A stretch of DNA of 64,000 nucleotides from Candidatus Omnitrophota bacterium (GCA_963805065.1 CAWDSS010000010.1:792359-856358); one strand, 5' to 3'. Positions 8,376 through 49,366 are shown, numbered from the stretch's first letter. Made by a program: numbers and translations. The notes: generated by a model from the sequence alone, not told the origin.

Positions 8376-9702
8376 ACTAAACATAGACCCGATTAGAATA
8401 TTCGAAATCTTAAGCCGGAAAAACCACTGCTTTTTTCTGGACAGTAGCCTCCACGGCAGGTATTCATTTTTAGGGATAGAGCCGTTCCATACGTTACAAA
8501 CCAAAAATGCAGAGCCTTTTAATAATCTAAGACAGTTGTTATCCCAATACAAGATTTCAGTTAAAAAAAATAGTATTCCGTTTCTGGGGGGCGCAGTAGG
8601 TTTCTTAAGTTATGATTTAGGCTTTCTTCTGGAAAAAAAGCTTATTCGTAAAACCAGGGATGATTTGGCCATCCCGCATTGTTTTTTCGCATTCTATAAC
8701 ACGGCAATCATCATCGATAATCTCAAAAAATTACTTTATGTATTTGCCGTAGGCTTTCCGGAGAAAAGATACGGCCCCGGGAAAAGCCTTTGCCAAGCAA
8801 ACATTAAAAAAATACAAAACCTGCTTTTGCGCTGTGAGACGCATAAGGCTTATAGCAGTAAAAATAAAGCAGAAACCAATCATTCTAGCCTTGAGTCTAA
8901 CTTTAGTCGAAAAGATTATCTCTTGGCAGTAAAGAAAGCAAAACAATACATAAAAGCAGGGGATATTTATCAGGTTAACCTTGCGCAAAGATTTAGCGCC
9001 AGGACTAAAGTTTGCGCTGACAAAATTTATCAGAGGTTGCGCAGATTAAGCCCCTCTGATTTTAGCGCTTATTTTGATGCCCAGGATTTTCAGATTATCA
9101 GTTCTTCACCGGAAAGATTCTTAAAATTGGAAAATAATACAGTGATTACCACTCCCATGAAAGGCACCCGCTCGCGCGGGGAAACCTCAGCACAAGACGC
9201 ACTGCTTAAGAATGAATTGTTAAACAGCAAAAAAGACAAAGCAGAATTAACCATGATTGTGGATTTGGAGCGCAATGACTTGGGAAGAGTTTGTAAATAC
9301 GGCTCTGTAAAAGTTAATGCATTAAGAAAATTAGAAAAATACAATACGGTGTTTCAGACCACTGCCACGGTTAGCGGGCAACTGCACAAAGACAAAGACA
9401 GGCTGGATTTACTGCGTGCCTGTTTTCCCGGCGGCTCCATAACGGGATGCCCCAAAATCAGGGCTATGGAGATTATCGAGGAGCTTGAGCCAAACAGCCG
9501 CTCAATTTATACCGGCTCTCTTGGTTATTTAAGTTTTTCCGGCGGCATGGATTTTAACATTCTCATCCGCAGCATATTAAAAAAGAAAGATAAGCTTTAT
9601 TTTGGCGTGGGAGGCGGGATTGTGGCTGATTCAGACCCGCAATCCGAATACGAGGAAACGCTTGTGAAGGCAAAGGCAATGATTGAGGCAATAGAAAACT
9701 AA
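8347..9702 (+). CDS. pabB: aminodeoxychorismate/anthranilate synthase component I
   Basis: Chorismate-binding motifs: GDIYQVNLAQRF, PMKGT, FPGGSITGCPK, YTGSLGY. Confidence 0.8.
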   Translation: MAYYTWKSYKLNIDPIRIFEILSRKNHCFFLDSSLHGRYSFLGIEPFHTLQTKNAEPFNNLRQLLSQYKISVKKNSIPFLGGAVGFLSYDLGFLLEKKLIRKTRDDLAIPHCFFAFYNTAIIIDNLKKLLYVFAVGFPEKRYGPGKSLCQANIKKIQNLLLRCETHKAYSSKNKAETNHSSLESNFSRKDYLLAVKKAKQYIKAGDIYQVNLAQRFSARTKVCADKIYQRLRRLSPSDFSAYFDAQDFQIISSSPERFLKLENNTVITTPMKGTRSRGETSAQDALLKNELLNSKKDKAELTMIVDLERNDLGRVCKYGSVKVNALRKLEKYNTVFQTTATVSGQLHKDKDRLDLLRACFPGGSITGCPKIRAMEIIEELEPNSRSIYTGSLGYLSFSGGMDFNILIRSILKKKDKLYFGVGGGIVADSDPQSEYEETLVKAKAMIEAIEN

Positions 9703-10520
9703 TGAAGGAAATAGTATTTTCAAACGGAAAATTCCTGGCTGCAGAGGATGCGAAAATTCCCGTGAGTAGCCTGGGTTTATTAATGGGCTTAGGATTGTTT
9801 GAAACCATGCGCTCATACAATAAAAAAATAGTTTATTTGGATAAGCATTTAACTAGGATTAAGAATTCCTGCAAACTGATTAATTTGAAATTTCCTTACT
9901 CTATAAGCAAGTTAAAGAATAGCATTAAAAAGACAGTAGAACTTAATGCTATTCAAGATGCCTATGTAAGATTAACATTATGCAAATCCGTATCCGGGAC
10001 AGATTGTATAATTTTGTTAAAAAAATACACCCCCTTTCAGTTGGCAAAATATAAAAAAGGCTTTTCAGCAATAGTTTCACGATTTCTACAGGATGAAAAC
10101 TCTTTGCTTTCGCAAATCAAAACCACAAACCGTATGATTTACGAAATTGCGCTGCAGGAAGCAAAACTCGCAGGATGTGACGAGGCACTATTCCTTAATA
10201 ACAAAGGCTTTATCGCAGAGGCCTCGCGAAGCAATGTTTTCCTGGTAAAGAACCAGGAAATTTTTACGCCTTCTCTACAATGCGGTTGTCTTGATGGCAT
10301 CACCAGAAGAGTTATCCTTGATTTGGCAAAAAAACACCATTTGAAGGCCAGTGAAGGAAATTTTACCTTGCAGGAATTATATTATGCTGACGAGGCGTTT
10401 TTAACCAATTCTTTAATCGGGATTATGCCTTTGACTTGCATAGAAAAACATGCTATTGGCAAGGCCGGAAGAGGCGAAACAACAGAGTTTTTGATAAAAA
10501 AATACGATTCCTTACTTTAA
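9702..10520 (+). CDS. pabC: aminodeoxychorismate lyase / class IV aminotransferase
   Basis: Fold-type IV PLP enzyme pattern (..RSNVF.., GITR, ..FLTNS..), immediately downstream of pabB. Confidence 0.7.
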   Translation: MKEIVFSNGKFLAAEDAKIPVSSLGLLMGLGLFETMRSYNKKIVYLDKHLTRIKNSCKLINLKFPYSISKLKNSIKKTVELNAIQDAYVRLTLCKSVSGTDCIILLKKYTPFQLAKYKKGFSAIVSRFLQDENSLLSQIKTTNRMIYEIALQEAKLAGCDEALFLNNKGFIAEASRSNVFLVKNQEIFTPSLQCGCLDGITRRVILDLAKKHHLKASEGNFTLQELYYADEAFLTNSLIGIMPLTCIEKHAIGKAGRGETTEFLIKKYDSLL

Positions 10521-10522
10521 AA

Positions 10523-11668
10523 ATGCATCTAGAAACCATAACAATACCTTTTAAACTAAAAAAGCCTATTCTTGCATTGGGCAGCCAAACCAAAAATACA
10601 ATTTGTTTTGTAAAAGGTGATACTGCTTATATTAGCCCGGTGCACGCTGATTTAAGCAATCCACAAGACTTTTTACAATTCGAGAAAGACGTAAAATATT
10701 TTCTTAAACAAAGGCCAAAAATCATTGCTTATGATTTACACCCGGAATATCAATCCACAAAATATGGTCTTGAGCTTTCAGCTTTCAGCTTTCAGCTTTC
10801 AGCTGTGCAGCATCATCATGCGCATATAGCTGCCTGTATGGCAGAGAATGGCTTGAGTAACCAGAAAGTCATTGGCGTAGCTTTTGACGGCACTGGTTTA
10901 GGCGCGGATGGCTCGCTTTGGGGAGCAGAGTTTCTGATTTGCGACTATAAAAATTTTGTGCGTAAAGCCCATGTTCAAGAAATAGTTCTTCTGGGAGGAG
11001 AAAAAGCAATATTAGAACCCTTTAGGCTCACAGCAGCCTGGCTTTTCCTGGCCTATGAAGGCAGGTTTTTAAACCTGGATATTGATTTCGTGAAGAAACT
11101 GGATAAAAAGAAATGGCTGGTTTTAAAGCAAATGCTTGTATCGGGATTTAACTCTCCGTTGGCAAGCAGCATGGGCAGGCTTTTTGATGCAGCTGCTAGC
11201 CTTGTGTTAAGCAAGTATAAAGCTAGCTTTGAAGCAGAGCTGGCGATTGAATTAGAAAAATTAGCTGTTAGTTTTCAGTCGTCAGTTTTCAGTCGTCAAC
11301 TTTCAGCTATCAGCTATCAGTTTAAAATCATTAAAAGCAAAAATGATTATATCTTAGATCCTGCTTTAATTTTTAAAGGAATAATTCAAGATTTAAAAGC
11401 TGGCACGCCAAAAGAGAAAATTGCTTACAAGTTTCACAAAACTATTGCTGAAATGATAAATAAAACCTGTAGAATTTTAAGAAAGGGTAGCGGCATAAAC
11501 AACGTGGTTTTATCAGGCGGGGTTTTTCAAAATAAGCTTTTACTTAAGTTAAGTTCGGATTTATTATATAAACATAAGTTTAGATTATATATGCACAAAA
11601 ATTTATCCTGCAATGACTCAGGAGTTTCTCTCGGTCAAGCTTTAATCGCAAATTTTTCAAAGGGTTAA
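10523..11668 (+). CDS. hypF: HypF-like protein consisting only of the C-terminal Kae1-like domain
   Basis: LGSQTKNT, DLHPEY, QHHHAHIAA and AFDGTGLG..LWGAEFL match the HypF C-terminal half. The acylphosphatase, Zn-finger and YrdC parts are absent. I use the ATG at 10523, just after the pabC stop. Confidence 0.7.
   Translation: MHLETITIPFKLKKPILALGSQTKNTICFVKGDTAYISPVHADLSNPQDFLQFEKDVKYFLKQRPKIIAYDLHPEYQSTKYGLELSAFSFQLSAVQHHHAHIAACMAENGLSNQKVIGVAFDGTGLGADGSLWGAEFLICDYKNFVRKAHVQEIVLLGGEKAILEPFRLTAAWLFLAYEGRFLNLDIDFVKKLDKKKWLVLKQMLVSGFNSPLASSMGRLFDAAASLVLSKYKASFEAELAIELEKLAVSFQSSVFSRQLSAISYQFKIIKSKNDYILDPALIFKGIIQDLKAGTPKEKIAYKFHKTIAEMINKTCRILRKGSGINNVVLSGGVFQNKLLLKLSSDLLYKHKFRLYMHKNLSCNDSGVSLGQALIANFSKG
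10773..10807. repeat. heptanucleotide tandem repeat (AGCTTTC)x4 plus a degenerate unit, inside hypF
   Basis: Read directly: agctttc agctttc agctttc agctttc agctgtg. Confidence 0.9.
11263..11325. repeat. degenerate heptanucleotide array (AGNNNTC)x9 inside hypF
   Basis: Read directly: agctgtt agttttc agtcgtc agttttc agtcgtc aactttc agctatc agctatc agtttaa. Confidence 0.85.
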
Positions 11669-11672: not shown

Positions 11673-11882
11673 ATGTGTTTGGCTATCCCCATGAGAATTA
11701 AGCAAATCGAAGGACAGTTTGCCCAGGTTGAATCAGGCAGGCTCGTAAGGACAATTAATATCCAAATGCTGCCTCAGGCAAAAAAAGGAGACTATGTGCT
11801 TGTGCATGCGGGGTTTGCCCTGGAGAAAATTGACCCTAAAAGAGCAAAAGAAACCTTAAGGATGATAAATGAAATACGTTGA
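11673..11882 (+). CDS. hypC: hydrogenase maturation chaperone HypC
   Basis: N-terminal MCLAIP motif, about 70 aa, located between hypF and hypD. Confidence 0.85.
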   Translation: MCLAIPMRIKQIEGQFAQVESGRLVRTINIQMLPQAKKGDYVLVHAGFALEKIDPKRAKETLRMINEIR

Positions 11883-12957
11883 TGAATTCAGGAATATAGC
11901 CCTGGTTAACAAGCTAAAGGAGAAAATAAAAAATATCGCTCCTTTAGGAGCAATAAATTTTATGGAAGTGTGCGGCACGCATACTCAAAGTTTTCGCAGG
12001 TTCGGTTTGAATAATATGCTCCCCAACAATATCAGGCTGATTGCCGGCCCGGGCTGCCCTGTGTGCGTTAGCTCGCAAGGATACATTGATAATGCGATTA
12101 CCCTGGCACACCGTAAAGAGGTAATTTTGGTTACATTCGGAGATATGCTGCGTATTCCCGGCACTAGCTCCACGCTGGAAAAAGAAAAGTCTCTCTACTC
12201 TAACGTGCGCGTAGTTTATAGCGCCTGGGAAAGCCTGAACATTGCCAAACAAAATCCCGATAAGCAAGTAGTGTTTTTAGCAGTGGGTTTTGAAACCACG
12301 GCTCCCACAATTGCCTTAAGCATAATCGCCGCTAAACAGGAGAAATTAAATAATCTATCTTTCTATTCTTCTCTGAAGTTGATTCCTCCTGCCATGGATT
12401 ATCTGGCAAGGGACAAAAGGTTAAGGCTGGACGGGTTTTTGTGTCCCGGACACGTTTCCTCCATAATCGGAACCAGGCCTTACCGATTCCTGCCTCAAAA
12501 ATACGGCGTGGGTTGCTGCATAACCGGATTTGAGCCGCTGGATATTTTAGAAGGCATATACATATTATTACGCCAAATTAAGGAATGTAAGCCAAGAGTG
12601 GAAAACCAGTACAGCCGCGCAGTGGCAAGAGAAGGAAATTTAAAAGCGCAAAAGACAATCTGGCAAGTTTTTCACACCTCTGATGCTTATTGGCGGGGCT
12701 TGGGAAAAATCCCCCAAAGCGGGCTTAAAATAAGAGAAAAATTCGCAAAACTCGATGTAGAAAAAATATTCCCCATAGCAAAAAATGAATTTGTTAAGTT
12801 TCAACAAAAGAAATGCCGCTGTGCCGATATTTTAAAAGGGCTTATCTCTCCTTTGGATTGTCCTTTATTCTTAAAGGTGTGTTCTCCGGAAAATCCCATC
12901 GGTCCGTGCATGGTTTCCCTGGAAGGAGCGTGTAATGCGTATTATAAATACCGGTGA
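11869..12957 (+). CDS. hypD: hydrogenase maturation protein HypD
   Basis: Motifs EVCGTHT, GPGCPVCV and FETTAP, plus the C-terminal Cys cluster. Confidence 0.9.
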   Translation: MKYVDEFRNIALVNKLKEKIKNIAPLGAINFMEVCGTHTQSFRRFGLNNMLPNNIRLIAGPGCPVCVSSQGYIDNAITLAHRKEVILVTFGDMLRIPGTSSTLEKEKSLYSNVRVVYSAWESLNIAKQNPDKQVVFLAVGFETTAPTIALSIIAAKQEKLNNLSFYSSLKLIPPAMDYLARDKRLRLDGFLCPGHVSSIIGTRPYRFLPQKYGVGCCITGFEPLDILEGIYILLRQIKECKPRVENQYSRAVAREGNLKAQKTIWQVFHTSDAYWRGLGKIPQSGLKIREKFAKLDVEKIFPIAKNEFVKFQQKKCRCADILKGLISPLDCPLFLKVCSPENPIGPCMVSLEGACNAYYKYR

Positions 12958-15361
12958 AAAGTTAAAAGTAAAAAGCAAAAAGGTAAAAGTGAAAAGCCAA
13001 AAGTTAAAAGTGTTGATTTTTGCGTTTTGCATTTTGGGTTTAACTGCCGGTTGTATTCAGAAAGACGAACTAGAGCTGGCGCAGGAATGTGTAGGCAAGT
13101 CCGATGTCTACTACCAGCATGCCATTGAAAGGTACAAGAAATTAATTAATAAAGGCAAGGACTTAGACAGGCTGTATTTTGAACTGGGCAGGTTGTATTA
13201 CTCGCACGGTGAATTTGACAAGTCTAAACATGCCTTGGAAAAAAGCGCGGCTTTACAGGGACATAAGCTTCTGGCTATATCTGATTATAAACTGGGTAAT
13301 TTTACCGATGCCCTGGAAATTTTTGGCAAGGATAATATTTCCGATGATGAATACCTGTATTATTACGGTTTAACCTGCGAAAAATTGAACCTGTTTGATA
13401 AAGCCCTGGATATTTATAAAAAGATAAAAGGCAATAAATTTATTCCGCTCGCACAGGCACGCATAAATATCATCCGCAATGATGGAGCGTTGCAAACAAT
13501 AGAACAAAAAGACCCCAACATTTATAAAATTATTCAATCCGCGCCATCCCCAGAAGCCTATCCTCAGGCAGGGGCGCTTATTCTGTCCTGCGATGAAAGA
13601 ATCGAAGTCACTGACAAAAATAGCGAAGTTTCAGACATGCACTACGTGATTAAGATTTTAAATGAACGGGGAAAGGAAGATTTTTCAGAAAGCCACATTG
13701 AATACGATTCTACCTATGAAAAGGTAGAATTGGAGTATGCGCGCACCATAAAACCGGACGGCACGATTACAGATGTGGGCAGCCGCCATATCCGCGATGT
13801 CTCCAAATATTTAAATTTTCCCCTCTACAGCAATGTGCGGGTTTACATAATTTCCTTCCCGGAAATTACTGAAGGTGCAGTCATAGAATATAAGGTAAAG
13901 ATTTACAGGAACGAGCTTATCAACAAAAAGGATTTCGTGATAAATTATCCTGTACAATCAAGCGAGCCGGTAATCTTCGCGGATTTTACGGTTACATTGC
14001 CCAAAGGCAGAACTCTGAACCTAAGGACATTAAATGAAAAATACAACAATTTCAACGCCAATCTTAAGCCAGCAATAAACGAACAAGGCACGCGCTTAGT
14101 TTACAGTTGGCACTTTAATAATATCCCTCAGATAATCCCTGAATCCAACATGCCTCCTAACGTAGAGATAAACCCCGCGATACTTATGTCCACTTTTAAT
14201 TCATGGCAAGATATTTATAATTGGTGGTGGGCATTAGCAAAAGATAAAATAAAAGCAGATAAGACTATAGGAAACAAAGTCGCTACCTTAACGGGGAAAT
14301 TAAGTTCTGATGAGGCCAAAATCAGGGCGATATATAATTTCTGCGCAAAAGAAATCCGCTATGTAGCGGTTGAATACGGGCAGGCAGGCTATGAGCCGCA
14401 TAAAGCAGAAGATATATTCCAGAATAAATACGGAGACTGTAAAGACCAGGCAATTCTTTTAGTTACGATGCTTAAAAATTGCGGGTTTACTGCCTGGCCG
14501 GTGTTGATTTCTACAAACGATTATTATAATATGAACCCGGATTTTCCGGCAGTGCTGTTTGACCACTGTATTGCTGCCGTGCAGTTAAAAGACAAAATAA
14601 TATTCCTTGATCCTACGGCGCAAACCTGCTCTTTTGACGACCTGCCAGGAGGGGATCAGGACAGGCAGGTATTGGTATTTAAAGAGAATACCTTTGCGAT
14701 ACAGTTAACACCCCTGTATCCTGCAGGGCATAACCTGGTAAAACAGGCGGCAAGCATCAAAATTAACAATGATGAAACTATAACCGCTAAAAAAGACATC
14801 TTTACCTATGGAATGTATGATCAGGCACAGAGGTATTGGCTCCTGTTTACTCCTCCTCAGCTAATCGAAGAAAAATTGAAAGAGAGAATCCAGGAAGTCT
14901 CTATCGGAGCCAAACTTAGTAAATATGAAATAAAAAACTTAGATAACCTTAATGAGCCCGTAGTATTAAGTTATACATTTAGCGGGCCGGAGTATCTTAC
15001 TATTGCAGGGCCGTTAAGGATTATGCCGCAGCTAGCAAGCCTGGATTCGACAATGGTAGCCAGAGACAAGCGTAAATACCCCATTGATCTCACTATCTTA
15101 GACAAGAAAGAATCGGTGTTGGAGATTGAATTCCCCAAGAATTTCACAATTAAATATATGCCCCAGAGCGTTTCCGAGGACAGCCCCTGGATGTCATTTA
15201 AAGTTGAGTATACCCCTAAAGGCGATAAGCTGGTATTCAGGCAGGTAGCCGAATTAAAAAAGAAAGTCATAGAGGAGCAGGATTACCCTGCTTTTAAAGC
15301 GTTTTTTGATAAATTAGCCAGGCAGATAAAGCAAAGAGTTGTCTTAGAAAAGATAAAGTAA
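12935..15361 (+). CDS. lipoprotein with TPR repeats, a DUF3857-like region and a transglutaminase-like cysteine protease core
   Basis: Lipobox LTAGC. TPR-like helices follow. YGDCKDQAILLVTMLK resembles the transglutaminase-like core Cys. Confidence 0.65.
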   Translation: MRIINTGEKLKVKSKKVKVKSQKLKVLIFAFCILGLTAGCIQKDELELAQECVGKSDVYYQHAIERYKKLINKGKDLDRLYFELGRLYYSHGEFDKSKHALEKSAALQGHKLLAISDYKLGNFTDALEIFGKDNISDDEYLYYYGLTCEKLNLFDKALDIYKKIKGNKFIPLAQARINIIRNDGALQTIEQKDPNIYKIIQSAPSPEAYPQAGALILSCDERIEVTDKNSEVSDMHYVIKILNERGKEDFSESHIEYDSTYEKVELEYARTIKPDGTITDVGSRHIRDVSKYLNFPLYSNVRVYIISFPEITEGAVIEYKVKIYRNELINKKDFVINYPVQSSEPVIFADFTVTLPKGRTLNLRTLNEKYNNFNANLKPAINEQGTRLVYSWHFNNIPQIIPESNMPPNVEINPAILMSTFNSWQDIYNWWWALAKDKIKADKTIGNKVATLTGKLSSDEAKIRAIYNFCAKEIRYVAVEYGQAGYEPHKAEDIFQNKYGDCKDQAILLVTMLKNCGFTAWPVLISTNDYYNMNPDFPAVLFDHCIAAVQLKDKIIFLDPTAQTCSFDDLPGGDQDRQVLVFKENTFAIQLTPLYPAGHNLVKQAASIKINNDETITAKKDIFTYGMYDQAQRYWLLFTPPQLIEEKLKERIQEVSIGAKLSKYEIKNLDNLNEPVVLSYTFSGPEYLTIAGPLRIMPQLASLDSTMVARDKRKYPIDLTILDKKESVLEIEFPKNFTIKYMPQSVSEDSPWMSFKVEYTPKGDKLVFRQVAELKKKVIEEQDYPAFKAFFDKLARQIKQRVVLEKIK
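12954..13042. repeat. inverted pair of heptamer arrays: (GNNAAAA)x8 followed by (GNNTTTT)x4
   Basis: Read directly. It spans the hypD stop and the first ~35 codons of the next ORF. Confidence 0.85.
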
Positions 15362-15364
15362 AGA

Positions 15365-17308
15365 GTGAACAGAAAAAATTATCATATTCCCGAAAGAAGA
15401 AAATACATAAGGCTTGATACGGTATTGCCGGTGCAGTTTTGCCTGTTGAGCCTCGATGATAAACAATGCCTGTCAGAAGAATTACAGGGGTTCACAAGTA
15501 ATGTAGGTAAAGAGGGCATTTGCCTAACCGTAAATAATCTTGAGGCAAAACTCGCCGAGATTATAAAGGAAAAGAAAGCAAAGTTTTCTTTAGGTATAGA
15601 CCTGCCTCTTACTGTAGGCACTGTCGGCGCATCGGCAACAATAGTCTGGATGCAAAAATTAAGTGCGGGTTCGGATAAATATTTAATCGGTTTAAAATAT
15701 GAACATATTGACCGCGGGCAAAATAATAAAATCATGCTTTATGCCAGAGGCAAAAAATTATTCATTCCCACAGTCTTAATCGTTATTATTTTATTGAGTT
15801 TAAGTTTTGCGCTAGCCAGTTTCGTAAACATTAAATTAATCGAAAGGAACAAAGCACTGGTTAAGCAATTGGTAAATACTATCCAGGAATTAAATATTAC
15901 GAACCAGAAGGCCAAGGGAATAAGTAAGCAGAGCGAAGCACTACAACTGGAAATTAAAGAGCTCCAGTTACGCATCCAATCAGCCCAAAATGAAGCAGAA
16001 AATTTGGCTAAGAATGAATCAAAATCCCTAGAGAAAATCAAGGGATTAAACAGCTTGATTGCCAGGTTGATGAATGACAAGGCTTCCTTGCAGCAAAAGT
16101 TGGCGGGCCTGCAAAAACAGGAGGATGTTGTTACGCAAGAGTTGCTTCGCCTGGACAAAAAGAAGACGGGCCTGGAAAAAGCCAATATTGATAAGATGTA
16201 TGATTGGTTAAAAATACACCAGAATCCCAGAACCGGCTTGGTAATGAGTTTCGAGGGGGATAATGATATCGCAAACTGCGGATTTACTTATGACCAGGCA
16301 CTGGTTATACAGGCCTACACATATTTCGGAGATTTTGAACGGGCGAAAAAAATATTGGATTTCTTTGATAAAAAAGCAAAGTACTCCAAAGAAGGATTAT
16401 TCTACAATGCCTATTATACCAGCGACACAGAGCCTACTGAATACATCGTGCATAGCGGCCCGAATATTTGGCTGGGGATAGCGGTTCTGCAATACACCAA
16501 GAAGACCGGCGATACCCAATATTTAAGATTGGCACAGGGCATTGCCGACAGTTTGATAGTTTTACAAGATCAGGATAAGGAGGGCTATATCAGGGGCGGC
16601 CCTAATGTAGAATGGGTTGCAACAGAGCACAATCTTGATGCATATGCTTTCTTTAATATGCTCTATAAAATTACGAGAGATTTCGTGTATCTGGAAAAAG
16701 CAAATAAGGTATTAAATTGGTTAGTGAAACATACATATGATAATAAAGATATTCCGGTTAAACGCGGTAAGGGTGATTCTACTATTGCCACAGATACTTA
16801 TGCCTGGTCATTGGCAGCCATAGGCCCTAAGAAGCTTGAAGGATTGGGCCTTAATCCAGAGAGAATTCTAGAATTCGCAGAAAATAATTGCGCGGTAGAA
16901 GTAAATTATACCAGGCCGGAAGGCAGGACTACGAGAATAAAAGGGTTTGATTTCACCGCACAGAGAAATTTAGCAAGAGGAGGCGTTGTTTCTGCTGAGT
17001 GGACGGCGCAGATGATTGAGGCATTTAAAATAATGGCGGATTTTTATGCCAGGAAAGGGATTAAACCCAAGGCGCATATTTACGAGATGAAGGCAGAAGA
17101 ATACATGACGCAGCTGGGTAACATGATTATATCAAGCCCCTCTCCTTCCGGGCAGGGTGAGAGTTGCCTGCCTTACGCAACGCAGGATTTTGTAGATACC
17201 GGCCATGGCTGGATGACACCGAAAGGTAAATCTACGGGGTCTTTATCCGCCACTACTTACGGGATATTCGCTTACTATAATTATAATCCCCTGGAACTCA
17301 AGGAATGA
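15365..17308 (+). CDS. PilZ-domain / TM / coiled-coil protein with a large uncharacterised C-terminal domain
   Basis: N-terminal RRKYIR plus ..SNVGKEG.. resemble the PilZ RxxxR and DxSxxG motifs. A hydrophobic segment lies at about aa 135-155, followed by a heptad-rich stretch. Confidence 0.55.
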   Translation: MNRKNYHIPERRKYIRLDTVLPVQFCLLSLDDKQCLSEELQGFTSNVGKEGICLTVNNLEAKLAEIIKEKKAKFSLGIDLPLTVGTVGASATIVWMQKLSAGSDKYLIGLKYEHIDRGQNNKIMLYARGKKLFIPTVLIVIILLSLSFALASFVNIKLIERNKALVKQLVNTIQELNITNQKAKGISKQSEALQLEIKELQLRIQSAQNEAENLAKNESKSLEKIKGLNSLIARLMNDKASLQQKLAGLQKQEDVVTQELLRLDKKKTGLEKANIDKMYDWLKIHQNPRTGLVMSFEGDNDIANCGFTYDQALVIQAYTYFGDFERAKKILDFFDKKAKYSKEGLFYNAYYTSDTEPTEYIVHSGPNIWLGIAVLQYTKKTGDTQYLRLAQGIADSLIVLQDQDKEGYIRGGPNVEWVATEHNLDAYAFFNMLYKITRDFVYLEKANKVLNWLVKHTYDNKDIPVKRGKGDSTIATDTYAWSLAAIGPKKLEGLGLNPERILEFAENNCAVEVNYTRPEGRTTRIKGFDFTAQRNLARGGVVSAEWTAQMIEAFKIMADFYARKGIKPKAHIYEMKAEEYMTQLGNMIISSPSPSGQGESCLPYATQDFVDTGHGWMTPKGKSTGSLSATTYGIFAYYNYNPLELKE

Positions 17309-17973
17309 AGCCAGTTTTGAATTCTGTTTATAAAAAACTCTACGCATATTTTGGGCCTCAGCACTGGTGGCCAGGCGAAAGCCGCTTTGAGGTTATGGTA
17401 GGAGCAATACTTACGCAAAACACTAACTGGTCTAATGTAGAAAAAGCAATTGCCAATATCAAAAAACAAAACTTATTGCAATTCCAAAGGCTTCAAAGGC
17501 TGTCGCACAAAAGATTAGCCAGCTTAATCAGGCCTGCCGGTTATTATAATCTCAAGGCAAGGCGTTTAAAGGAATTCTTAAAATTCCTGCACAATCATTG
17601 CCGGGGTAATCTTCGTAAAATGTCCTGCGGGCCCATGGATGAACTGCGAGAGAAATTACTCTCTGTGAAAGGCATTGGCCCTGAGACAGCAGATTCTATC
17701 TTACTTTATGCTTTGAACAAGCCTGTGTTTGTGGTAGACGCATACACAAAAAGAATACTCTTGCGGCACAACATAATCAGAGAAGACTCCGATTATGCCG
17801 CAGTGCAAAATTTGTTTATGGAAAATCTAAAAAATGAGGTAAAATTATTCAACGAATACCATGCGTTATTAGTCAGGTTGGGTAAAGAATTCTGCCTCAA
17901 AAATAAGCCTAAATGTAAAGGATGCCCGATAAACTCAAAACGCAAAAGTCAAAATGCAAAACTTACAACGTAA
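17305..17973 (+). CDS. endonuclease III-like HhH-GPD DNA glycosylase family protein
   Basis: HhH motif LLSVKGIGPETADSILLY. Catalytic D in the VVDAYT context. C-terminal Cys residues. Confidence 0.7.
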   Translation: MKPVLNSVYKKLYAYFGPQHWWPGESRFEVMVGAILTQNTNWSNVEKAIANIKKQNLLQFQRLQRLSHKRLASLIRPAGYYNLKARRLKEFLKFLHNHCRGNLRKMSCGPMDELREKLLSVKGIGPETADSILLYALNKPVFVVDAYTKRILLRHNIIREDSDYAAVQNLFMENLKNEVKLFNEYHALLVRLGKEFCLKNKPKCKGCPINSKRKSQNAKLTT

Positions 17974-18683
17974 AACGCAAAACAAAAGTTTTGTCATTTG
18001 GTATTTGTGCTTTGAGCTTATTTTGGATTTTGTGCTTTGATATTTGTCATTTCGCTTATGCTGCGCCCTGTTACGGAACTAAGCTGCCTGAAAAAAACCA
18101 AATTTTTACGGGATTGCAAAGTTATTCTGTTTTTAACCGGTATCTGGAGGATGATGATGGAAAATTAAGGAGCCAGCAGGAATTTTTGCTTCTCTCCTAC
18201 GGGTTCCTAGATTGGTTATCTGTTGATTTAAAAGGAGGGGCAGGCTACATAAAACAGCATCCCTTCGGAAGCGATGAGCTTGATTATCCGACGTATCTAG
18301 GAGGTGGATACGGATTCAGAATTAAATTTTTTGATAAACAAAACACCAAGATGGTTTTTGGTTTTCAGCACATAAGCGTGCATCCCTATACTATTAGCGT
18401 AGAAGGCGTAAAGAACAAGGCAGTTTTAGATGATTGGCAGTTTTCCTTACTGGCATCGTATGATTTCAAGAAAATTACACCTTATCTGGGAACCAGGTGG
18501 TCCTGGCTGGATTATATCCACTGGACAAATGGTAATAGTAAATTAGAAAAGTCGGATTTAGGTAAGAGTGTCGGCCTGGTAGTAGGTTGCGACCTTCCCG
18601 TGAACGAGAGGTTCTGGTTTAATTTAGAAGGACAATTCTTTGATAGCGAAGCCCTCGCCTTCAGCGCGAATTATAGTTTTTAA
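17922..18683 (+). CDS. putative outer-membrane beta-barrel protein
   Basis: K-rich N-region, hydrophobic core and AYA cleavage-like site. Alternating aromatic/Gly strands and a terminal aromatic residue (..NYSF). Confidence 0.45.
   Translation: MPDKLKTQKSKCKTYNVKRKTKVLSFGICALSLFWILCFDICHFAYAAPCYGTKLPEKNQIFTGLQSYSVFNRYLEDDDGKLRSQQEFLLLSYGFLDWLSVDLKGGAGYIKQHPFGSDELDYPTYLGGGYGFRIKFFDKQNTKMVFGFQHISVHPYTISVEGVKNKAVLDDWQFSLLASYDFKKITPYLGTRWSWLDYIHWTNGNSKLEKSDLGKSVGLVVGCDLPVNERFWFNLEGQFFDSEALAFSANYSF
17934..18060. repeat. inverted pair of heptamer arrays: (NNCAAAA)x7 followed by (NTTTGNN)x~9
   Basis: Read directly. It spans the 3' end of the endoIII-like gene and the N-terminus of the next ORF. 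Confidence 0.85.
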
Positions 18684-33496: not shown

Positions 33497-34852
33497 ATGA
33501 CTTATCCAGAAGCAGTCAAGTATCTGGAATCTTTTATTAACTACGAAAAAATCCCCGCCTATCCTTACAAGGAGTCTTGTAAGCTGGAACGCATTAAAGA
33601 CTTTTTAGGCTTAATCGGTAACCCGCAAAACTCTCTTAAGACGATTCATATTGCCGGGACAAAAGGAAAGGGCTCAACCTGCGTTTTTATAGCCCATATA
33701 TTACGGCAGGCAGGTTACGCTACAGGCCTTTATACATCTCCGCATTTATCTGACTTCAGGGAGCGGATACGAATATTGATTCCCAGAACCCAGAACCCAG
33801 AACCCAGAACCGATTTCGAGGGTATGATCTCTAAGGATGAATTAACCTTGTTGGTAAAAAAGCTTAAACCCTCAGTAGAAACATTCAATAAAAATTCAGA
33901 ATACGGTCCCCTTTCTTTTTTTGAAGTATATACTGCATTAGCTTTCCTGTATTTTAAGAACAAAAATGTCGATTTTGCGGTATTGGAAACGGGTTTAGGA
34001 GGCAGGCTCGATGCCACTAATGCCTCTGATTCTTTTGTCTGTGCTTTAACTTCTCTAAGTTATGAACATACACAGAAATTGGGTAACGCCCTAAGAGAAA
34101 TAGCTGCTGAGAAAGCAGGAATCATAAAAAGGCAAAAGGCAAAAGGCAAAAGGCAAAACTCAATTGTGATAAGCGCGCCGCAGGAAAAAGAGGCGATGGA
34201 TGTAATCAGAAAGCGGTGCAAAGAGACAAATGCCAAATTATACGAAGTCAATAAGGATATATTTTATGAGAAAACAATAAAAGGATTTAATCTGCTGGGT
34301 ATATATGGGGAATACCCGAATTTAGAAATCAGGCTTTTAGGCGATCATCAGTTGATAAACGCAAGCGTAGCAGTCGCTGCAATAGAGGCATTGCGCGATT
34401 TTGGTGTTATCATAGGCATTGATTCTATAAGAAGCGGCCTTTATAATACTGTCTGGCCTGGACGCTTGGAAGTCGTGGGCAGAAGTCCTTTAATAATATT
34501 AGACGGAGCGCAAAATATTGCTTCTGCTAAGGCAATAAAACAGGCAATTAAGGGAAATTTCAAATATAAAAGGCTGATACTGGTTTTAGGAATTTCCCAA
34601 GACAAGGATTTATCAGGCGTGTGTGGCGAGTTAAAGGATATAGCAGATGCGGTAATTTTGACTAAGGCCAACAACCCCAGGGCAACTGGCCCGCAAATGT
34701 TACGCAGCTATTTTAATGAAGAATGCGTCTTTATAACTAATAATGTTAAACAGGCAAAGCAAAAGGCACTGTCAATGGCTAACAAGGACGATTTAATTTT
34801 AGTTACAGGTTCTTTATTCGTTGTCGGAGAATTCAGGGATGTTAAAATTTAA
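33497..34852 (+). CDS. folC: folylpolyglutamate synthase / dihydrofolate synthase
   Basis: HIAGTKGKGST, YTSPHL, ETGLGGRLDATN and DGAQN. Confidence 0.88.
   Translation: MTYPEAVKYLESFINYEKIPAYPYKESCKLERIKDFLGLIGNPQNSLKTIHIAGTKGKGSTCVFIAHILRQAGYATGLYTSPHLSDFRERIRILIPRTQNPEPRTDFEGMISKDELTLLVKKLKPSVETFNKNSEYGPLSFFEVYTALAFLYFKNKNVDFAVLETGLGGRLDATNASDSFVCALTSLSYEHTQKLGNALREIAAEKAGIIKRQKAKGKRQNSIVISAPQEKEAMDVIRKRCKETNAKLYEVNKDIFYEKTIKGFNLLGIYGEYPNLEIRLLGDHQLINASVAVAAIEALRDFGVIIGIDSIRSGLYNTVWPGRLEVVGRSPLIILDGAQNIASAKAIKQAIKGNFKYKRLILVLGISQDKDLSGVCGELKDIADAVILTKANNPRATGPQMLRSYFNEECVFITNNVKQAKQKALSMANKDDLILVTGSLFVVGEFRDVKI
33782..33811. repeat. heptanucleotide tandem repeat (CCCAGAA)x4.3 inside folC
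   Basis: Read directly. It encodes ..PRTQNPEPRT.., inserted after the conserved FRERI motif. Confidence 0.9.
34131..34158. repeat. heptanucleotide tandem repeat (GGCAAAA)x4 inside folC
   Basis: Read directly. It encodes ..KAKGKRQN.., inserted after the conserved EKAGIIK motif. Confidence 0.9.
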
Positions 34853-40290: not shown

Positions 40291-40424
40291 GACATTGTGA
40301 ACGCAATGCAACATTTGAATTTGAATTAGTAGCAAGCCTACCTTAAAGCCTCAACACACACCCGCTATTGCTATAGTCAATATATAGAATTTAGGAGATT
40401 TATATAGTTTTCTATTAAAATATA

Positions 40425-40453
40425 TTGACAATATATATAATTTGTGCTATTTT
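40425..40453 (+). promoter_or_regulatory. putative promoter (TTGACA, 17-nt spacer, TGcTATTTT) for the island ATPase operon
   Basis: Read directly. The SD AGGAGG at 40465 precedes the ATG at 40475. Confidence 0.4.
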
Positions 40454-40474
40454 TATAGAAAATAGGAGGTTCTT

Positions 40475-41764
40475 ATGAAAGAATATAACCCCTTTAACCC
40501 TAATTCGATTGTTACGCCAACCTTGTTTGCTGGTAGAACAGAATACACATTAAGAATTATTAAAAAATTAGTCCAAGTAAAAAAGGGTATGCCCTCAAGT
40601 TTCTTCTTATACGGGGAAAGAGGAATAGGTAAGACTGCTTTAGCAAAATTAATTAAGTCTGTTGCAGAAATAAAAGACCCTATCTTGGGGAATCTTAATT
40701 TTTTAACTGCCTACTATTCGGTTGAGAAGAATCAATTCATATCAAGTGTAATGCAAGCTTCATTAAATGAACTAACGGATATGATGCCTAAAAATATAAT
40801 TGAACAATTGGGAACAAGGCTCGGGAACATATTTAAAAATGGAAAATTTTCAATTGGAGCGTTCTCCGTAGGAGTTGAGCTTGGTGGAGGAGAGCAAGAA
40901 AGAGAAACCACAGTACTTAAAGACCTCATAGTTTCTATTTTGTCCAATGTTGTACAAGAGATGAAAAAGGCAGAAACGGATGTAAAAGACGGTATTTTGA
41001 TTATAATCGATGAGATGGATAATATTGCCGATATAGGAATGTGTGCTCAACTTTTAAGGGGTGCCATTACTACTCTTGATGTTAAAGGCTTAGGAAACGT
41101 TTCTTTCTTACTAATTGGTTATGACGTAACGGTTGAAAATTTTTGTAGTGGCGACCAATCGGTAAGAAGGCAATTTGATTTTATTCCTTTAGGAGTAATG
41201 CCTTGGGATGAAGCCAGAGAGGTTCTTACAAAGGGTTTTACAGAAGCAAAGGTTACTTGGGACGAGGGAGCTTTATTAGAAAATATATTGGTCACAGGTG
41301 GTTATCCTCATTCTATCCAGATGATAGGTCACCATCTAATTGAAGTGGATACCGATATGTTTATAGATGATAAAGATTGGGATGAAGCCATAAACAAAAC
41401 TGCTTATGATTTACAAGCCAAGGATTTCGCAACCTTATATGACTTTAAGGGGAAGCCAAGCATCAATGAATTAATTTTAGATATTTTAGCCGTCAGAGGT
41501 AAACCCTTAACAAAAAATGAGATTTACAAATTGAGCGAAGGGAAAAACATTTATCAGTATATTCCAGCACTTATAAAACGAGGTAGCATTAAAGAGATAC
41601 AAACAAAAGGGCAAATTATATTACATTCCTCTCTATTTCGAACCTCAATTTTGTTTCATATTCTACCCAAAATCAAACATTCAGGTTATCTTAGTCACTT
41701 GGTCAAAGAGACGCAACAGGCAGATGAATCTTCTTCATCCTCTTCATCAGCATCTTCCAGATAA
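40475..41764 (+). CDS. ORC/Cdc6-Arch_ATPase-like P-loop ATPase with a C-terminal winged-helix-like domain
   Basis: N-terminal FAGRTEY...LYGERGIGKTALAK (Walker A), LIIIDEMD (Walker B), C-terminal ..LTKNEIYKLS...LIKRGSI.., and a poly-Ser tail. Confidence 0.65.
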   Translation: MKEYNPFNPNSIVTPTLFAGRTEYTLRIIKKLVQVKKGMPSSFFLYGERGIGKTALAKLIKSVAEIKDPILGNLNFLTAYYSVEKNQFISSVMQASLNELTDMMPKNIIEQLGTRLGNIFKNGKFSIGAFSVGVELGGGEQERETTVLKDLIVSILSNVVQEMKKAETDVKDGILIIIDEMDNIADIGMCAQLLRGAITTLDVKGLGNVSFLLIGYDVTVENFCSGDQSVRRQFDFIPLGVMPWDEAREVLTKGFTEAKVTWDEGALLENILVTGGYPHSIQMIGHHLIEVDTDMFIDDKDWDEAINKTAYDLQAKDFATLYDFKGKPSINELILDILAVRGKPLTKNEIYKLSEGKNIYQYIPALIKRGSIKEIQTKGQIILHSSLFRTSILFHILPKIKHSGYLSHLVKETQQADESSSSSSSASSR

Positions 41765-41840
41765 ATTTCGTTGTCTTATTCCCAAAATTCCCTGTTAGAT
41801 TTTCCCATTTCTTACGTCTATTAGAGTAGGAGGTGGGAAT

Positions 41841-41963
41841 ATGCGTATATCCAAAGACCAATACTATAAAACTATGGCTAGGGCATTGCTTAAAGGCTAT
41901 TTTTTGGGCTTAAAGAAAAGCAGGAAGCAAAAGAAAAAGATTAAAGTTTGTTGTTATCAGTAG
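41841..41963 (+). CDS. possible 40-aa basic peptide (not in the ORF track)
   Basis: AGGAGGTG lies 5 nt upstream of the ATG. Translation: MRISKDQYYKTMARALLKGYFLGLKKSRKQKKKIKVCCYQ. Confidence 0.3.
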   Translation: MRISKDQYYKTMARALLKGYFLGLKKSRKQKKKIKVCCYQ

Positions 41964-42004
41964 TATAATAAATATAAGTCATAATCAGTTATAAGATAAA
42001 ACTC

Positions 42005-44458
42005 ATGAAAGATATAAATCACGCCTTAGTTCCAAAAACTCATCCCTCAATGTATCTTATGCACAAATATTGGGCAAGGAAACCTCATAATGTGGTTTCA
42101 GAATATATTAAAGCATACTCCCAAGAAGGCGAAATTATCTTAGACCCATTTTTAGGTTCTGGAGTTACAGTTATAGAAGCTTTGAGATTGGGTCGTAAAG
42201 CCGTAGGAGTTGATTTAGACCCAATATCTGCTTTTATTACAAGAAATACAATTGCACCAGTTGACTTAAATAAATTTAGAGAAGCGTTTGATAAAATTGA
42301 AAATAATATGAAACAATCTATAAATAATTTGTATAAGACGAAATGTGGCAATAAGAAATGCAGTAAAGAAGTTATAGCAGAGGCGGTTATCTGGAATGAT
42401 GGCACGCCAAAAGAAATTAGATATAGTTGTTCGTGTAAGACTGGAAGTCTTTGGAAGCAAGTTGATGATGAAGACCTTAAAAACTTAAAAGATATAGATT
42501 CTAGAAAAATTAATTATTGGTATCCAGATACCGAATTGATTTGGAATACACGTATTAATGTCCATAAAGGAACAAAGGTTTCTGATTTATTTACTAAAAG
42601 AAACTTATTAGCTCTTTCAATGATATTAGAAGAGATAGGCAAAATAAAAGATAGGACAATTGAAAATTTGCTTAAATTTACTTTTTCATCAGCTCTGCCT
42701 CAATCAAGTAAATTAGTCTTTGTGATACGGCAAAGGGGTAGGTCTGGAGGAGCAGTCAAGGAAGAGACAAAAGAGGTTGGAAGTTGGGCTACAAGAGGAT
42801 ATTGGATACCAAAAGAATATTTTGAAATAAATGCTTGGAATTGCTTAGAAGAACGCTTTGATAAAATATTTAGAGGGAAAAAGCAATCCAATATAGAGAT
42901 TAACAAGGTTAACGAGGTTAGCAATTTTTCTGAATTAAAAAAGAAAGAGAATAATGTATTATTAATTACTAAATCATGTTTGAATTTAAGTGAAATTACT
43001 AAGAATAGCATAGATTATATTTTTACAGACCCCCCTTATGGAGATAGTGTGCCTTATCTTGAATTAGATTTAATGTGGAATGCTTGGCAAAAATTTAAAG
43101 TTAACTTTGATGATGAGATAATTATAAGTAACAGTCCATTAAGAAATAAAACTTTTGATATATATGAGAAAATGTTAAGTACGGCTTTTGTAGAGATGTT
43201 TAGAGTCTTAAAGGCAGATAGATATATGACCGTAACTTTTCACAATACTGATATAAAAATCTGGAATTCTATAATTAGAGCTGTTGCTTATGCTGGATTT
43301 GATTTAGAGAAAATTATATATCAACCTCCTGCAAGACAATCTGCGAAAGGTTTGCTAGCTCTTTATGCAAGTGCAGTAGGCGATTATTATATCAGATTTA
43401 AAAAACCAAAAGGTAATAAACCTGTATCAGCAGCTGATATTGACCAAGCAAGATATGAAAGAATTGTTGTCGAATCTACTAAGAAAATATTAGCAGAAAG
43501 AGGAGAACCCACCCCTTATACTCACATTCTAAATGGGGTTATCGTTGCCTTAAGAAAAGAGGGCGCATTACTTACTGGCGATAAAAATCCTGATAATGTT
43601 TTGAAAGAACACAAGGATAAAGAATTCAAAAGTATAGATGTAGAAGATAAGAAAGGTAAAGTGTTAGGACAGAAATGGTGGTTTTCTGATGCTTCTACAG
43701 TTCCTTTCTTAGAAATTGTTCCTTTAAGCGATAGATTAGAAACTGCTATTATTGAAGTATTGAATCGCAAGACAAAGATATCCTTTGATGATGTATTACA
43801 AGAGATATTTATTAAATTTCCTAATGCCCTGACTCCTGATTCACAAGATGTAAAAGACCTTTTGGAAGAATATGCTGCGCAAACTGAAGATGGGAATTGG
43901 ATGCTTAAGCCGATGCTAAAAATAAGAGAATCAGAACATAGCGAGATGATTTATTATATATCACAGATAGGGAAAAGAATGGGTTATAAAATATGGATTG
44001 GTAAAAAAGAACAAGGGGCTACTTACCAAAAGAAGAAACTATTCAATTTTTGTGATTATAATATTCAGAAATTAAAGAATATTAATGAAGATATTCTAGA
44101 TAAAATTCAAAATATTGATATATTGTGGATAAATGAAGATAGAATAGATTCTGAATTCGAAGTTGAGAATACTACAGCAATAACCGAATCAATTATAAGA
44201 GGAGGAAATATTCCTTATAGAGTCAAGAGGTTCATAATTTTACCAGAAGAAAGAGCAGAATTTTATCATAGAAAAATTAAAGAACCTTTACTCGTTGATA
44301 GAATAAAAGATGATTGTTGGCAGAATATATTCTATACTAAATTAAAGGAATTTTTTATAGAAAGTAAAAGACACAAGATTAAATTTTCTGATTTTGAAGA
44401 AATAATATCGCAGAAAGCTGCAATTGAAGAAACAGGACAAAAGAGATTCGAATTTTAA
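42005..44458 (+). CDS. COG1743/DUF1156-type Zn-ribbon adenine DNA methyltransferase fused to a C-terminal PD-(D/E)xK-like domain
   Basis: HKYWARKPHN..DPFLGSGVT (SAM motif I) at the N-terminus. CGNKKC...CSC Zn-ribbon. FTDPPYGD (motif IV) at about aa 340. C-terminal ..IDILWI...EFEVENTT.. is nuclease-like. Confidence 0.7.
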   Translation: MKDINHALVPKTHPSMYLMHKYWARKPHNVVSEYIKAYSQEGEIILDPFLGSGVTVIEALRLGRKAVGVDLDPISAFITRNTIAPVDLNKFREAFDKIENNMKQSINNLYKTKCGNKKCSKEVIAEAVIWNDGTPKEIRYSCSCKTGSLWKQVDDEDLKNLKDIDSRKINYWYPDTELIWNTRINVHKGTKVSDLFTKRNLLALSMILEEIGKIKDRTIENLLKFTFSSALPQSSKLVFVIRQRGRSGGAVKEETKEVGSWATRGYWIPKEYFEINAWNCLEERFDKIFRGKKQSNIEINKVNEVSNFSELKKKENNVLLITKSCLNLSEITKNSIDYIFTDPPYGDSVPYLELDLMWNAWQKFKVNFDDEIIISNSPLRNKTFDIYEKMLSTAFVEMFRVLKADRYMTVTFHNTDIKIWNSIIRAVAYAGFDLEKIIYQPPARQSAKGLLALYASAVGDYYIRFKKPKGNKPVSAADIDQARYERIVVESTKKILAERGEPTPYTHILNGVIVALRKEGALLTGDKNPDNVLKEHKDKEFKSIDVEDKKGKVLGQKWWFSDASTVPFLEIVPLSDRLETAIIEVLNRKTKISFDDVLQEIFIKFPNALTPDSQDVKDLLEEYAAQTEDGNWMLKPMLKIRESEHSEMIYYISQIGKRMGYKIWIGKKEQGATYQKKKLFNFCDYNIQKLKNINEDILDKIQNIDILWINEDRIDSEFEVENTTAITESIIRGGNIPYRVKRFIILPEERAEFYHRKIKEPLLVDRIKDDCWQNIFYTKLKEFFIESKRHKIKFSDFEEIISQKAAIEETGQKRFEF

Positions 44459-44504
44459 TAGTATCTTGACAGAGAAAAACCTTAAGGAGTTGAATAGTTT
44501 AAGA

Positions 44505-45302: not shown

Positions 45303-45801
45303 ATGTGTCTTATTAAACACCTACAGTCAGATACATGAATAAAAAACAATTAATTGTTATTTTAGTACTTTAGCATATCCCCACAGCATATTTTAAATAG
45401 CATAGTCAATTTAGCATTGTAGATACAGCATTAAGGTAAAAAAATAAAACAGCTTAAATTAAAAAATTTTGTCATTTTTGCTTTAACTATATGAAAGTAA
45501 ATGGGTTATTTTTTTTGAAAATTGCCTTGAAAACCGACGAGGAATGTGTTAAGCTTATAATGTAAATTTTGTGGCGTTGCGTTAATTAGGGCGCAGATAA
45601 GTCCAATAGGGCGAAAGCCAAGAAGTATAAGAAGCGAACTATACTTTTGGTTGTTCGCCTATTTTGTTTTATAGGGACTTATGAAAGACAAACGCCCCAA
45701 GATAATCTTAGAATACGAACCCTCAGAAGACTCACAGAGGCGACTTGAGCAGGTTTTTGAGATACTTTTTAAGGAAGATGTGGAAAGGAAGTCAGCCGAA
45801 A

Positions 45802-47221: not shown

Positions 47222-47278
47222 ATGTAATAATAAATCAATCTATCCGACTTTTCGGAAAACAACAGAAAGGAGATAGGA

Positions 47279-49029: not shown

Positions 49030-49061
49030 CATTATTCCATCCAAGTCTTATTCAAGCTTGG

Positions 49062-49349: not shown

Positions 49350-49366
49350 TTAGCATAGGAAACGCT

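Follow-up and report, generated by a model that had tools for sequence, protein, structure and literature searches.

The junction between hypD and the gene of a predicted lipoprotein was analysed in a 64-kb window of DNA from Candidatus Omnitrophota (the window is this whole stretch, and all coordinates count from its first letter). Two arrays of 7-nt units, one A-rich and the other T-rich, lie at this junction, and the elements involved are as follows.

11869–12957, + strand: hypD, encoding a hydrogenase maturation protein (PF01924 HypD, E 2.6e-145), with the stop codon TGA at 12955–12957; its C-terminus, ...SLEGACNAYYKYR, was aligned with 47 orthologues.
12922–12928, + strand: Shine-Dalgarno-like GAAGGAG, 6 nt 5' of ATG 12935 and embedded in invariant Glu-Gly codons of HypD (from the sequence and the HypD alignment).
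12935–12937, + strand: likeliest start codon of the lipoprotein gene, in the +1 frame of the HypD Asn-Ala codons AAT GCG (from codon conservation).
12935–15361, + strand: gene of the 808-aa lipoprotein, with TPR, DUF3857, transglutaminase core and DUF3858 (from Pfam and homologues).
12954–13009, + strand: A-rich heptamer array of eight GNNAAAA units (or AAAAGNN), with a 21-nt super-period, encoding EKLKVKSKKVKVKSQKLK as an extended n-region (from the sequence, tandem repeat search, recoding and shuffles).
12989–12991, + strand: in-frame GTG with AAGG upstream (12980–12983), a candidate internal start that would yield MKSQKLKVLIFAFCILGLTAGC (from the sequence).
13015–13042, + strand: T-rich heptamers GATTTTT, GCGTTTT and GCATTTT plus the imperfect GGGTTTA, encoding the h-region LIFAFCILGL (from the sequence).
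13040–13054, + strand: lipobox codons Leu-Thr-Ala-Gly-Cys, with Cys40 at 13052–13054 (from the translation and its conservation).

Sequence and periodicity of the heptamer arrays

On direct reading, the units at 12954–13009 are GTGAAAA, GTTAAAA, GTAAAAA, GCAAAAA, GGTAAAA, GTGAAAA, GCCAAAA and GTTAAAA, all eight of them exact copies of the GNNAAAA pattern as the original prediction for this DNA had it, and the hypD stop codon falls within the first unit, as had also been proposed. The arrays are separated by a GTGTT linker (13010–13014). Four GNNTTTT units had been predicted at 13015–13042, and three of them are exact (13015–13035), whereas the fourth, GGGTTTA at 13036–13042, has one mismatch.

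The chance expectation for heptamer patterns, and also for folds, was obtained from dinucleotide shuffles. The pattern of four GNNAAAA units was found six times in the window, five of them at this array, compared to 0.00 expected, and the pattern of three GNNTTTT units was found five times, compared to 0.01 expected. The periodicity was also compared with that of synonymous recodings, in which codons were resampled from the window's own usage to give the same peptide (n = 1000). The identity at a lag of 7 nt was 0.64, compared to 0.44 ± 0.05 for the recodings, and none of the 1000 reached the observed value. For the A-array alone the identity was 0.77, compared to 0.47 when recoded, with a single recoding out of 1000 as high. 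The 7-nt periodicity is a property of the DNA and is not imposed by the peptide. With at least three units placed head to tail, beyond what chance and beyond what the peptide account for, the element is a heptanucleotide tandem array.

When the A/T element was analysed with Tandem Repeats Finder (TRF), a period of 7 was detected with 7.9 copies and 79% matches, and a period of 21 with 2.7 copies and 88% matches, the higher score of the longer period being the one expected if recent changes had to preserve the reading frame. As seven is not divisible by three, every unit is read in all three phases, and the peptide repeat K[LV]KVKS[KQ] corresponds to three heptamers (21 nt) read in three phases as seven residues. 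An assembly artefact was ruled out by an independent Logan assembly (L081), which is near-identical to the window, identical over this region, and carries the same array; the nearest relative of the protein apart from it is only 73% identical. Two further candidates were dropped: ribosome sliding on poly(A), as no run of A exceeds 5 nt, and bending of the DNA by phased A-tracts, as units of 7 bp would not keep phase with the helix.

Translation of the arrays at orthologous junctions

The translation of the open reading frame (ORF) at 12935–15361 begins MRIINTGEKLKVKSKKVKVKSQKLKVLIFAFCILGLTAGC, as originally noted. Residues 1–26 form an n-region with 9 Lys, 1 Arg and 1 Glu (net charge +9), charged as in a signal peptide. 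Typical n-regions have roughly 5–8 residues, so that one of 26 is unusually long. The T-array encodes the h-region LIFAFCILGL just before L-T-A-G-C, as had been stated, in the arrangement of h-region and lipobox that is recognized by signal peptidase II, and the peptide LIFAFCIL recurs in many orthologues. All of 30 orthologues compared have Cys40, and at least 90% of them have Gly39; nearly all orthologues have [GAS]C at this position. Therefore, the 808-aa protein is a lipoprotein by sequence rules, and its export, lipidation and cleavage by Lsp are predicted. The protein has 907 homologues, and every one of those named by source belongs to Candidatus Omnitrophota.

For the comparison of junctions, a set of 80 loci was taken from one GTDB species-genome scan; they comprise 1.3 Mb, were sampled around one gene cluster, and almost all bear Omnitrophota in their titles. 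The lipoprotein gene directly follows hypD in 48 of the 80 loci, and 42 junctions were anchored for the analyses of length, stops, periodicity and folding. One uninterrupted frame runs from the 3' end of hypD into the mature lipoprotein in 44 of the 48 hypD-adjacent species. The distance from the overlapping start to the Cys codon takes 26 distinct values between 72 and 204 nt among the 42 junctions, and every one of them is a multiple of three. No stop was found in the lipoprotein frame, compared to 123 stops in one of the other frames, spread over 40 junctions, and 91 in the remaining one, spread over all 42. At the position of the overlap, which lies in the HypD motif EGxCNAYY, 41 of the 44 loci whose frame is uninterrupted have a start codon, ATG or GTG. 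Asn in this motif is encoded by AAT in 36 of 40 loci, compared to a background of 71%, and the four loci with AAC are those in which the lipoprotein is out of frame, interrupted, or using a downstream ATG. The kept frame, the absence of stops, and the 26 spacer lengths over 44 of 48 species argue that the A-array is almost certainly translated as an extension of the n-region, as the original prediction had supposed in assigning the Lys-rich n-region to it.

The true start could alternatively lie downstream, at GTG 12989, GTG 13010 or TTG 13013, with the A-array being an intergenic repeat that is open by chance. This placement would agree with the AAGG motif 5 nt 5' of GTG 12989, with the short n-regions of the other lipoproteins in the window, and with the short classic signals, such as MAKRSILIFAFC... 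and MVKKSILIFVFC..., of orthologues away from hypD. However, chance openness fits poorly with the frame and stop conservation just described, with the conserved overlapping ATG or GTG and AAT codon, and with a strong GAAGGAG placed 6 nt 5' of ATG 12935, and we regard a downstream start, which would have spoken against the original prediction, as very unlikely.

Significant lag-7 periodicity was detected at the hypD junction in 19 of the 42 species, and the other 23 junctions are array-free. The median length of the signal peptide is 44 codons in the array-bearing junctions, compared to 30 in the array-free ones. Some orthologues have perfect or near-perfect arrays at this place, as (TCGCAAG) x 4.3 with 100% matches in locus L031 and (AAGACAC) x 5.3 with 96% in L007. 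Heptamer-built signal peptides were also found in at least three further gene families, so the pattern extends beyond this locus and the one near 17934 to which the original prediction had pointed.

A unit that is not a multiple of three, placed in the coding region of a leader peptide, with perfect arrays in orthologues such as L031 and L007, could in principle act as a phase-variation switch, in which slipped-strand gain or loss of one heptamer would turn the lipoprotein off and on, as the CTCTT repeats of the Neisseria opa genes do. The array of the window, however, is not the perfect or near-perfect tract that such a switch needs: no two neighbouring units of the A-array are identical (79% matches), so that slippage by one unit should be rare. 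In addition, two independent assemblies are identical, 42 of 42 orthologous junctions are in the ON frame, and the Omnitrophota considered here are free-living or episymbiotic environmental bacteria that are not known to face immune pressure from a host. Switching of this kind is considered highly improbable.

The distribution of tandem repeats was analysed with TRF on 1.36 Mb, comprising the window and the 80 loci, taking ORFs of at least 120 codons as long. A period of 7 was the commonest one by a wide margin, in 129 of 497 clusters, and 48 of the 71 arrays with a score of at least 50 had a period of 7, 14, 21 or 42. Of 70 heptamer arrays, 64 lie inside long ORFs. A stop triplet in any phase was found in 10 of the 64 intragenic consensus units, compared to 35–39% expected, and in all six (6/6) of the heptamer arrays outside long ORFs. 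The G+C content of the arrays was 27% in signal-peptide zones, compared to 50% elsewhere in ORFs. Within signal peptides, A-rich units (AAACGCA, AAATCAA, AAGACAC, AAAAGTT and others) are translated into hydrophilic peptides, and T-rich units (TTTTTAC, TTTTAAG, CATTTTA, ATTTTTT and others) into peptides that are 78–92% hydrophobic, with several units of mixed composition among these arrays too. Heptamer arrays have hot spots in signal peptides, where the n-regions hold the A-rich and the h-regions the T-rich ones. Stop avoidance and composition sorting are the apparent marks of selection on intragenic arrays. In the window itself, TRF located arrays in two genes, one hypF-like and one folC-like, as well as at the two gene junctions and in an intergenic hairpin. 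In different species, arrays occupy equal protein positions but with unlike units, as in the HypD linker, the HypF sites and two signal peptides, that of the lipoprotein and that of a 253-aa protein encoded downstream of nth.

Pairing potential, shared modules and origin of the arrays

The capacity of both arrays to pair, which had been claimed before, was analysed by folding, with the following prediction for the junction.

12950–13051, + strand: predicted imperfect RNA hairpin with a CCGG/CCGG basal clamp, in which A-units 1–5 pair with T-units and A-units 6–8 lie in the loop (from the minimum free energy).

The minimum free energy of the region 12945–13055 is -27.7 kcal/mol, with z = -3.75 compared to dinucleotide shuffles, and only 14 of 1000 synonymous recodings are equally stable. 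The arrays are thus able to pair, but the T-array is not the complement of the A-array, as had been proposed: both have G after the homopolymer, AAAAG in one and TTTTG in the other, and are therefore reverse complements no further than A4:T4.

Such a structure might be a functional RNA hairpin that tunes the translational coupling of hypD and the lipoprotein gene, masks GTG 12989, pauses early elongation, or stabilizes the 3' end of hypD. Its stability and its clamp, which links the last hypD codons to the lipobox codons, would agree with such roles, as would the phased heptamer hairpins found in L026 (z -3.65) and in an M1-peptidase/Omp85 gene downstream of nth in L004 (z -3.04), and the existence of a strong non-coding hairpin of inverted heptamers in the window:

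60755–60872, no strand assigned: intergenic inverted arrays (GTGTAAT)n ... (ATTACAC)n forming a long hairpin between the ORFs 59143–60750 and 60890–62224 (from TRF and folding).

This last element has a minimum free energy of -46 kcal/mol and z -5.1 on either strand, so that non-coding inverted heptamer arrays do exist in the genome; it could act as a terminator or play a role like that of repetitive extragenic palindromic (REP) elements. At the hypD junction, however, the hairpin is not conserved. Compared to synonymous recodings, the median z over the 42 junctions was +0.55, with 2 of 42 below -2, and compared to dinucleotide shuffles 4 of 42 were below -2 (the window, L006, L026 and L069), with 0 of 23 among the array-free junctions. 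A conserved cis-regulatory hairpin was rejected on these junctions as a general feature. In addition, the stem lies 3' of the start codon and the Shine-Dalgarno-like sequence and does not sequester them, the modules of L003 and L084 described below gave no comparable hairpin on folding, and the second locus of the window (17922–18065) reached only z -1.29, no better than chance. A scan of 12500–18500 against Rfam 15 gave no matches at E <= 1, no terminator-like site was found in 12600–13400, where the stem is A/U-rich and followed by GUUGUAUUCAG, unlike an intrinsic terminator, and a promoter scan around the hypD junction returned nothing relevant. A functional role for the hairpin is considered quite unlikely.

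The order of the arrays, first A and then T, follows from the order of signal peptides, which run from n-region to h-region, as AAA encodes Lys, and TTT, TTG and ATT encode Phe, Leu and Ile. That arrays generally have a reverse-complement partner was rejected: within 160 nt, such a partner (at least 16/21 matches) was found for 12 of 70 arrays, compared to nine in the plain-complement control, and for A/T-rich units such counts are inseparable from a switch in composition. The hairpin at the hypD junction is most likely a by-product. The original proposal of a repeat-derived hairpin that was co-opted as, or generated, a secretion signal stands as regards the origin from a repeat, but not as regards co-option of the hairpin, and mRNA folding, which it had suggested as a check, was stable here but not at the second locus or in most orthologues.

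That second locus is also a gene junction.

17922–18065, + strand: NNCAAAA array (17931–17983) straddling the nth stop codon (17971–73), followed by TTTG-type units and encoding the signal peptide MPDKLKTQKSKCKTYNVKRKTKVLSFGICALSLFWILCFDICHFAYA of a 253-aa protein (from TRF, inverted repeat analysis and orthologue N-termini).

The arms are of 36 nt and 75% complementary. The 253-aa protein has no Pfam match, its mature end YA|APCYGT is conserved, and the signals of its orthologues range from short classic ones to long array-built ones. In L004, the gene following nth encodes the M1-peptidase/Omp85 protein instead, with a like module.

Modules of about 70–100 nt, made of an A-array and a T-array, are 86–94% identical as DNA among non-homologous genes of different genomes. 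They were located in the lipoprotein gene of L002 (10024–10120) and L007 (8680–8757), in the gene after nth of L003 (15095–15191), in a third unrelated gene on the metagenome contig L084 (716–791), and in L004 (15008–15101). A 36-nt core, AAATTTTAAATTTTGGGTTGTGGTTTTTACTTTTAC, varies by 0–2 bases among the modules of L002, L007, L003 and L084, whereas the orthologous gene bodies of module-bearing genomes are only 68–76% identical. The T-arm of L004, at the start of the M1-peptidase/Omp85 gene, matches the A-arm of L002 in reverse complement with 86% identity. In the window, reverse complementation of the A-units at 17931–17983 gives the T-units GCRTTTT, and the T-arm matches the h-region of a non-homologous gene at 13071 of L006 in 29 of 36 nt. 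The suggested search for array pairs at gene starts gave, in 1.39 Mb, eight strict pairs with the A-array first and none with the T-array first, all eight at the 5' ends of long ORFs. The shared modules point to possible conversion or mobility of signal-peptide modules.

The arrays of the window might then be a diverged copy of a portable signal-peptide cassette, a dispersed quasi-palindromic element with an A-arm and a T-arm that is mobile or gene-converted. As an A-then-T module is alike on both strands, it gives a Lys-rich and then a hydrophobic peptide in either orientation. Such cassettes, inserted by transposition or conversion at the 5' ends of genes and often across the upstream stop codon, might create, replace or extend secretion signals. 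The excess identity of the modules over their gene bodies, the reverse-complement relationships and the order and position of the eight pairs are all in its favour. Nevertheless, the 100-nt module of the window has no close non-orthologous copy in 1.4 Mb (none for the A-arm, and 29/36 nt at best for the T-arm), several of the eight pairs come from near-identical genomes, and common heptamer families could promote ectopic conversion without mobility. Terminal repeats, target duplications or a transposase were not seen, although no search was made for them. Searches of protein databases with the array-derived peptides, made to count the families with N-termini of this kind, gave no more than short spurious ORFs of (AAATTCA)n arrays, or no candidates. 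This origin is considered unlikely for the arrays of the window, and likewise as a general mechanism; it would be compatible with the interpretation that follows, as an account of where the arrays came from.

Our preferred interpretation is that the signal peptide, being disposable, was probably lengthened by heptamer arrays that were born by slippage and then tolerated and sorted under selection, the hairpin being a by-product. A degenerate heptanucleotide array would arise by replication slippage within the 5' coding region of the lipoprotein gene, the translation of which would start at the ATG that overlaps the end of hypD. As the signal peptide would be removed after export, selection would act only on its bulk properties, and arrays would be tolerated as long as their net length remains a multiple of three, no in-frame stop appears, and their composition suits their position, A-rich arrays giving an n-region of Lys, Asn, Gln and Ser, and T-rich arrays an h-region of Phe, Leu, Ile and Cys. 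In this way a signal peptide of about 30 residues would have grown to about 40, with a net charge of +9 in its n-region. The order of both arrays and part of their pairing potential would arise from the n-then-h polarity and the genetic code, the hairpin itself being presumably neutral.

Several points weigh against this interpretation. The T-array alone has a lag-7 identity of 0.53, compared to 0.42 when recoded, which is not significant by itself, with 74 of 1000 recodings as high. The hairpin is more stable than 98.6% of the synonymous recodings, implying some nucleotide pairing beyond what the peptide demands. Near-identical modules in non-homologous genes imply that slippage in situ is insufficient alone. 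Additional initiation could occur at GTG 12989, the start and cleavage sites being predicted here from the sequence. Finally, the 80 loci are related by ancestry, so the counts are not wholly independent.

Arrays in other genes and comparison with known systems

Heptamer arrays were also observed in the HypD protein itself, within a hypervariable segment of about 20 residues and about constant length between the FDAEK and CRC motifs. In many species this segment is a heptamer array, with another unit each time (GTCGCAC, CAGGGGT, GACAGGG, ACCAACG and GGCAGCA), examples being L002 9842–9875, L003 9844–9871, L026 9845–9876 and L035 9744–9776. The change of heptamers at near-constant length suggests turnover or homogenization of an old array under a length constraint.

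In the hypF-like ORF of the window (10436–11668), perfect or near-perfect arrays lie within the region of the Kae1-like domain, (AGCTTTC) x 4.6 at 10773–10804 and TCAGTCG/TCAGCTA units at 11270–11320, and they are translated as ELSAFSFQLSA and SAISYQ. HypF orthologues have other heptamers at those positions (CTACCTA, GCTATAC, CAGCTAT and CTAAGAG). This ORF, of 410 aa, matches only the C-terminal Kae1-like domains of HypF. The acylphosphatase, zinc-finger and YrdC parts were not seen upstream, where a class IV aminotransferase gene (9702–10520) overlaps, and in the homologue P0110 a class IV aminotransferase is fused directly to the DUF3857 protein.

The folC/Mur-ligase-like ORF at 33497–34852, a housekeeping gene, contains two arrays that are 100% perfect, (CCCAGAA) x 4.3 at 33782–33811, translated as PRTQNPEPRT, and (AAAAGGC) x 4.6 at 34127–34158, translated as KRQKAKGKRQ. 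They look like recent in-frame expansions within loops. Further downstream, the region of about 40400–52100 resembles an inserted island, as judged from N-terminal sequence only, with a methyltransferase-like ORF of 817 aa (42005–44458), a serine-recombinase-like ORF (50467–52092) and several genes (48589 and 49367) of small lipoproteins whose signals are short and classic.

Signal peptides are usually viewed as ordinary, loosely constrained coding sequence, whereas here, and throughout a candidate phylum in which translated arrays of this kind are common, both halves are repeatedly written by simple sequence repeats (SSRs) of 7 bases. This would provide a concrete mutational route for lengthening, remodelling and perhaps acquiring secretion signals. 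Heptameric SSRs, known mainly as intergenic, can be pervasive in genes, as in the linkers of HypD, HypF and FolC-like proteins and in signal peptides. The filter rules for intragenic arrays would be a unit that is stop-free in every phase, a net length that is a multiple of 21 nt, and a composition that suits the position. These results bear on the calling of gene starts, the prediction of signal peptides and the masking of repeats in metagenome-assembled genomes of Omnitrophota. If portable cassettes were true, they would represent a new mechanism in the evolution of protein localization, with de novo export signals driven by DNA repeats.

Among known systems, REP elements and elements like miniature inverted-repeat transposable elements (MITEs) are short, dispersed, palindromic intergenic sequences with hairpin potential that are found at gene junctions. 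The element at 60755–60872 and the L002-type module, present in 3–4 gene families, resemble this class. In contrast, the element at the hypD junction lies in a coding region, its heptamer arms are weakly complementary, and no multi-copy family of its own sequence was found in 1.4 Mb.

As related in PMC4692102, which cites a 2007 survey of prokaryotic SSRs, heptameric SSRs are over-represented in bacterial genomes, and slippage of the polymerase is the proposed cause. The short tandemly repeated repetitive (STRR) sequences of cyanobacteria, GGGGA(T/C)T in Nostoc, GGGAATC in Xanthomonas and the repeats of Calothrix were reported as over-represented intergenically (PMC4692102). They share with the arrays described here a period of 7, dispersal as arrays of about 3–8 units, variation at one site between relatives and some inverted pairs forming stem-loops. 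However, they are over-represented between genes and belong to one or few families, whereas 64 of 70 arrays in Omnitrophota lie in ORFs, are translated and have many unit sequences. In marine Beggiatoaceae, TAACTGA heptamers form intergenic direct repeats for which a role in post-transcriptional regulation has been proposed (PMC4679880). These are likewise abundant near gene boundaries in an uncultured lineage, but they consist of a single unit with stop triplets and are untranslated, unlike the array of the window. The tandem repeats of Borgs create amino-acid repeats and disordered regions, and the proteins carrying them are enriched in signal peptides (PMC9879509). The intragenic units of Borgs are all divisible by three, whereas the 7-nt unit of Omnitrophota gives seven residues per three units and must be stop-free in three phases. 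No literature linking Omnitrophota with heptamer or tandem repeats was found in the library searched.

Among coding repeats of leader peptides, the closest precedent is that of the Neisseria opa genes, in which perfect CTCTT pentamers in the leader-peptide coding region vary in number at about 1e-3 per generation and so switch expression (PMC3960869). As in the window, short tandem units of a length not divisible by three lie in the coding region of a signal peptide, are read in several phases and contribute residues to it. The opa repeats, however, code for the hydrophobic core, whereas the array of the window is degenerate (79%), codes mainly for the charged n-region, is ON in all orthologous junctions analysed and gives no evidence of switching. 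Heptameric SSRs and coding repeats in leaders were thus already known; what is new here are heptamer arrays translated in three phases that build signal peptides.

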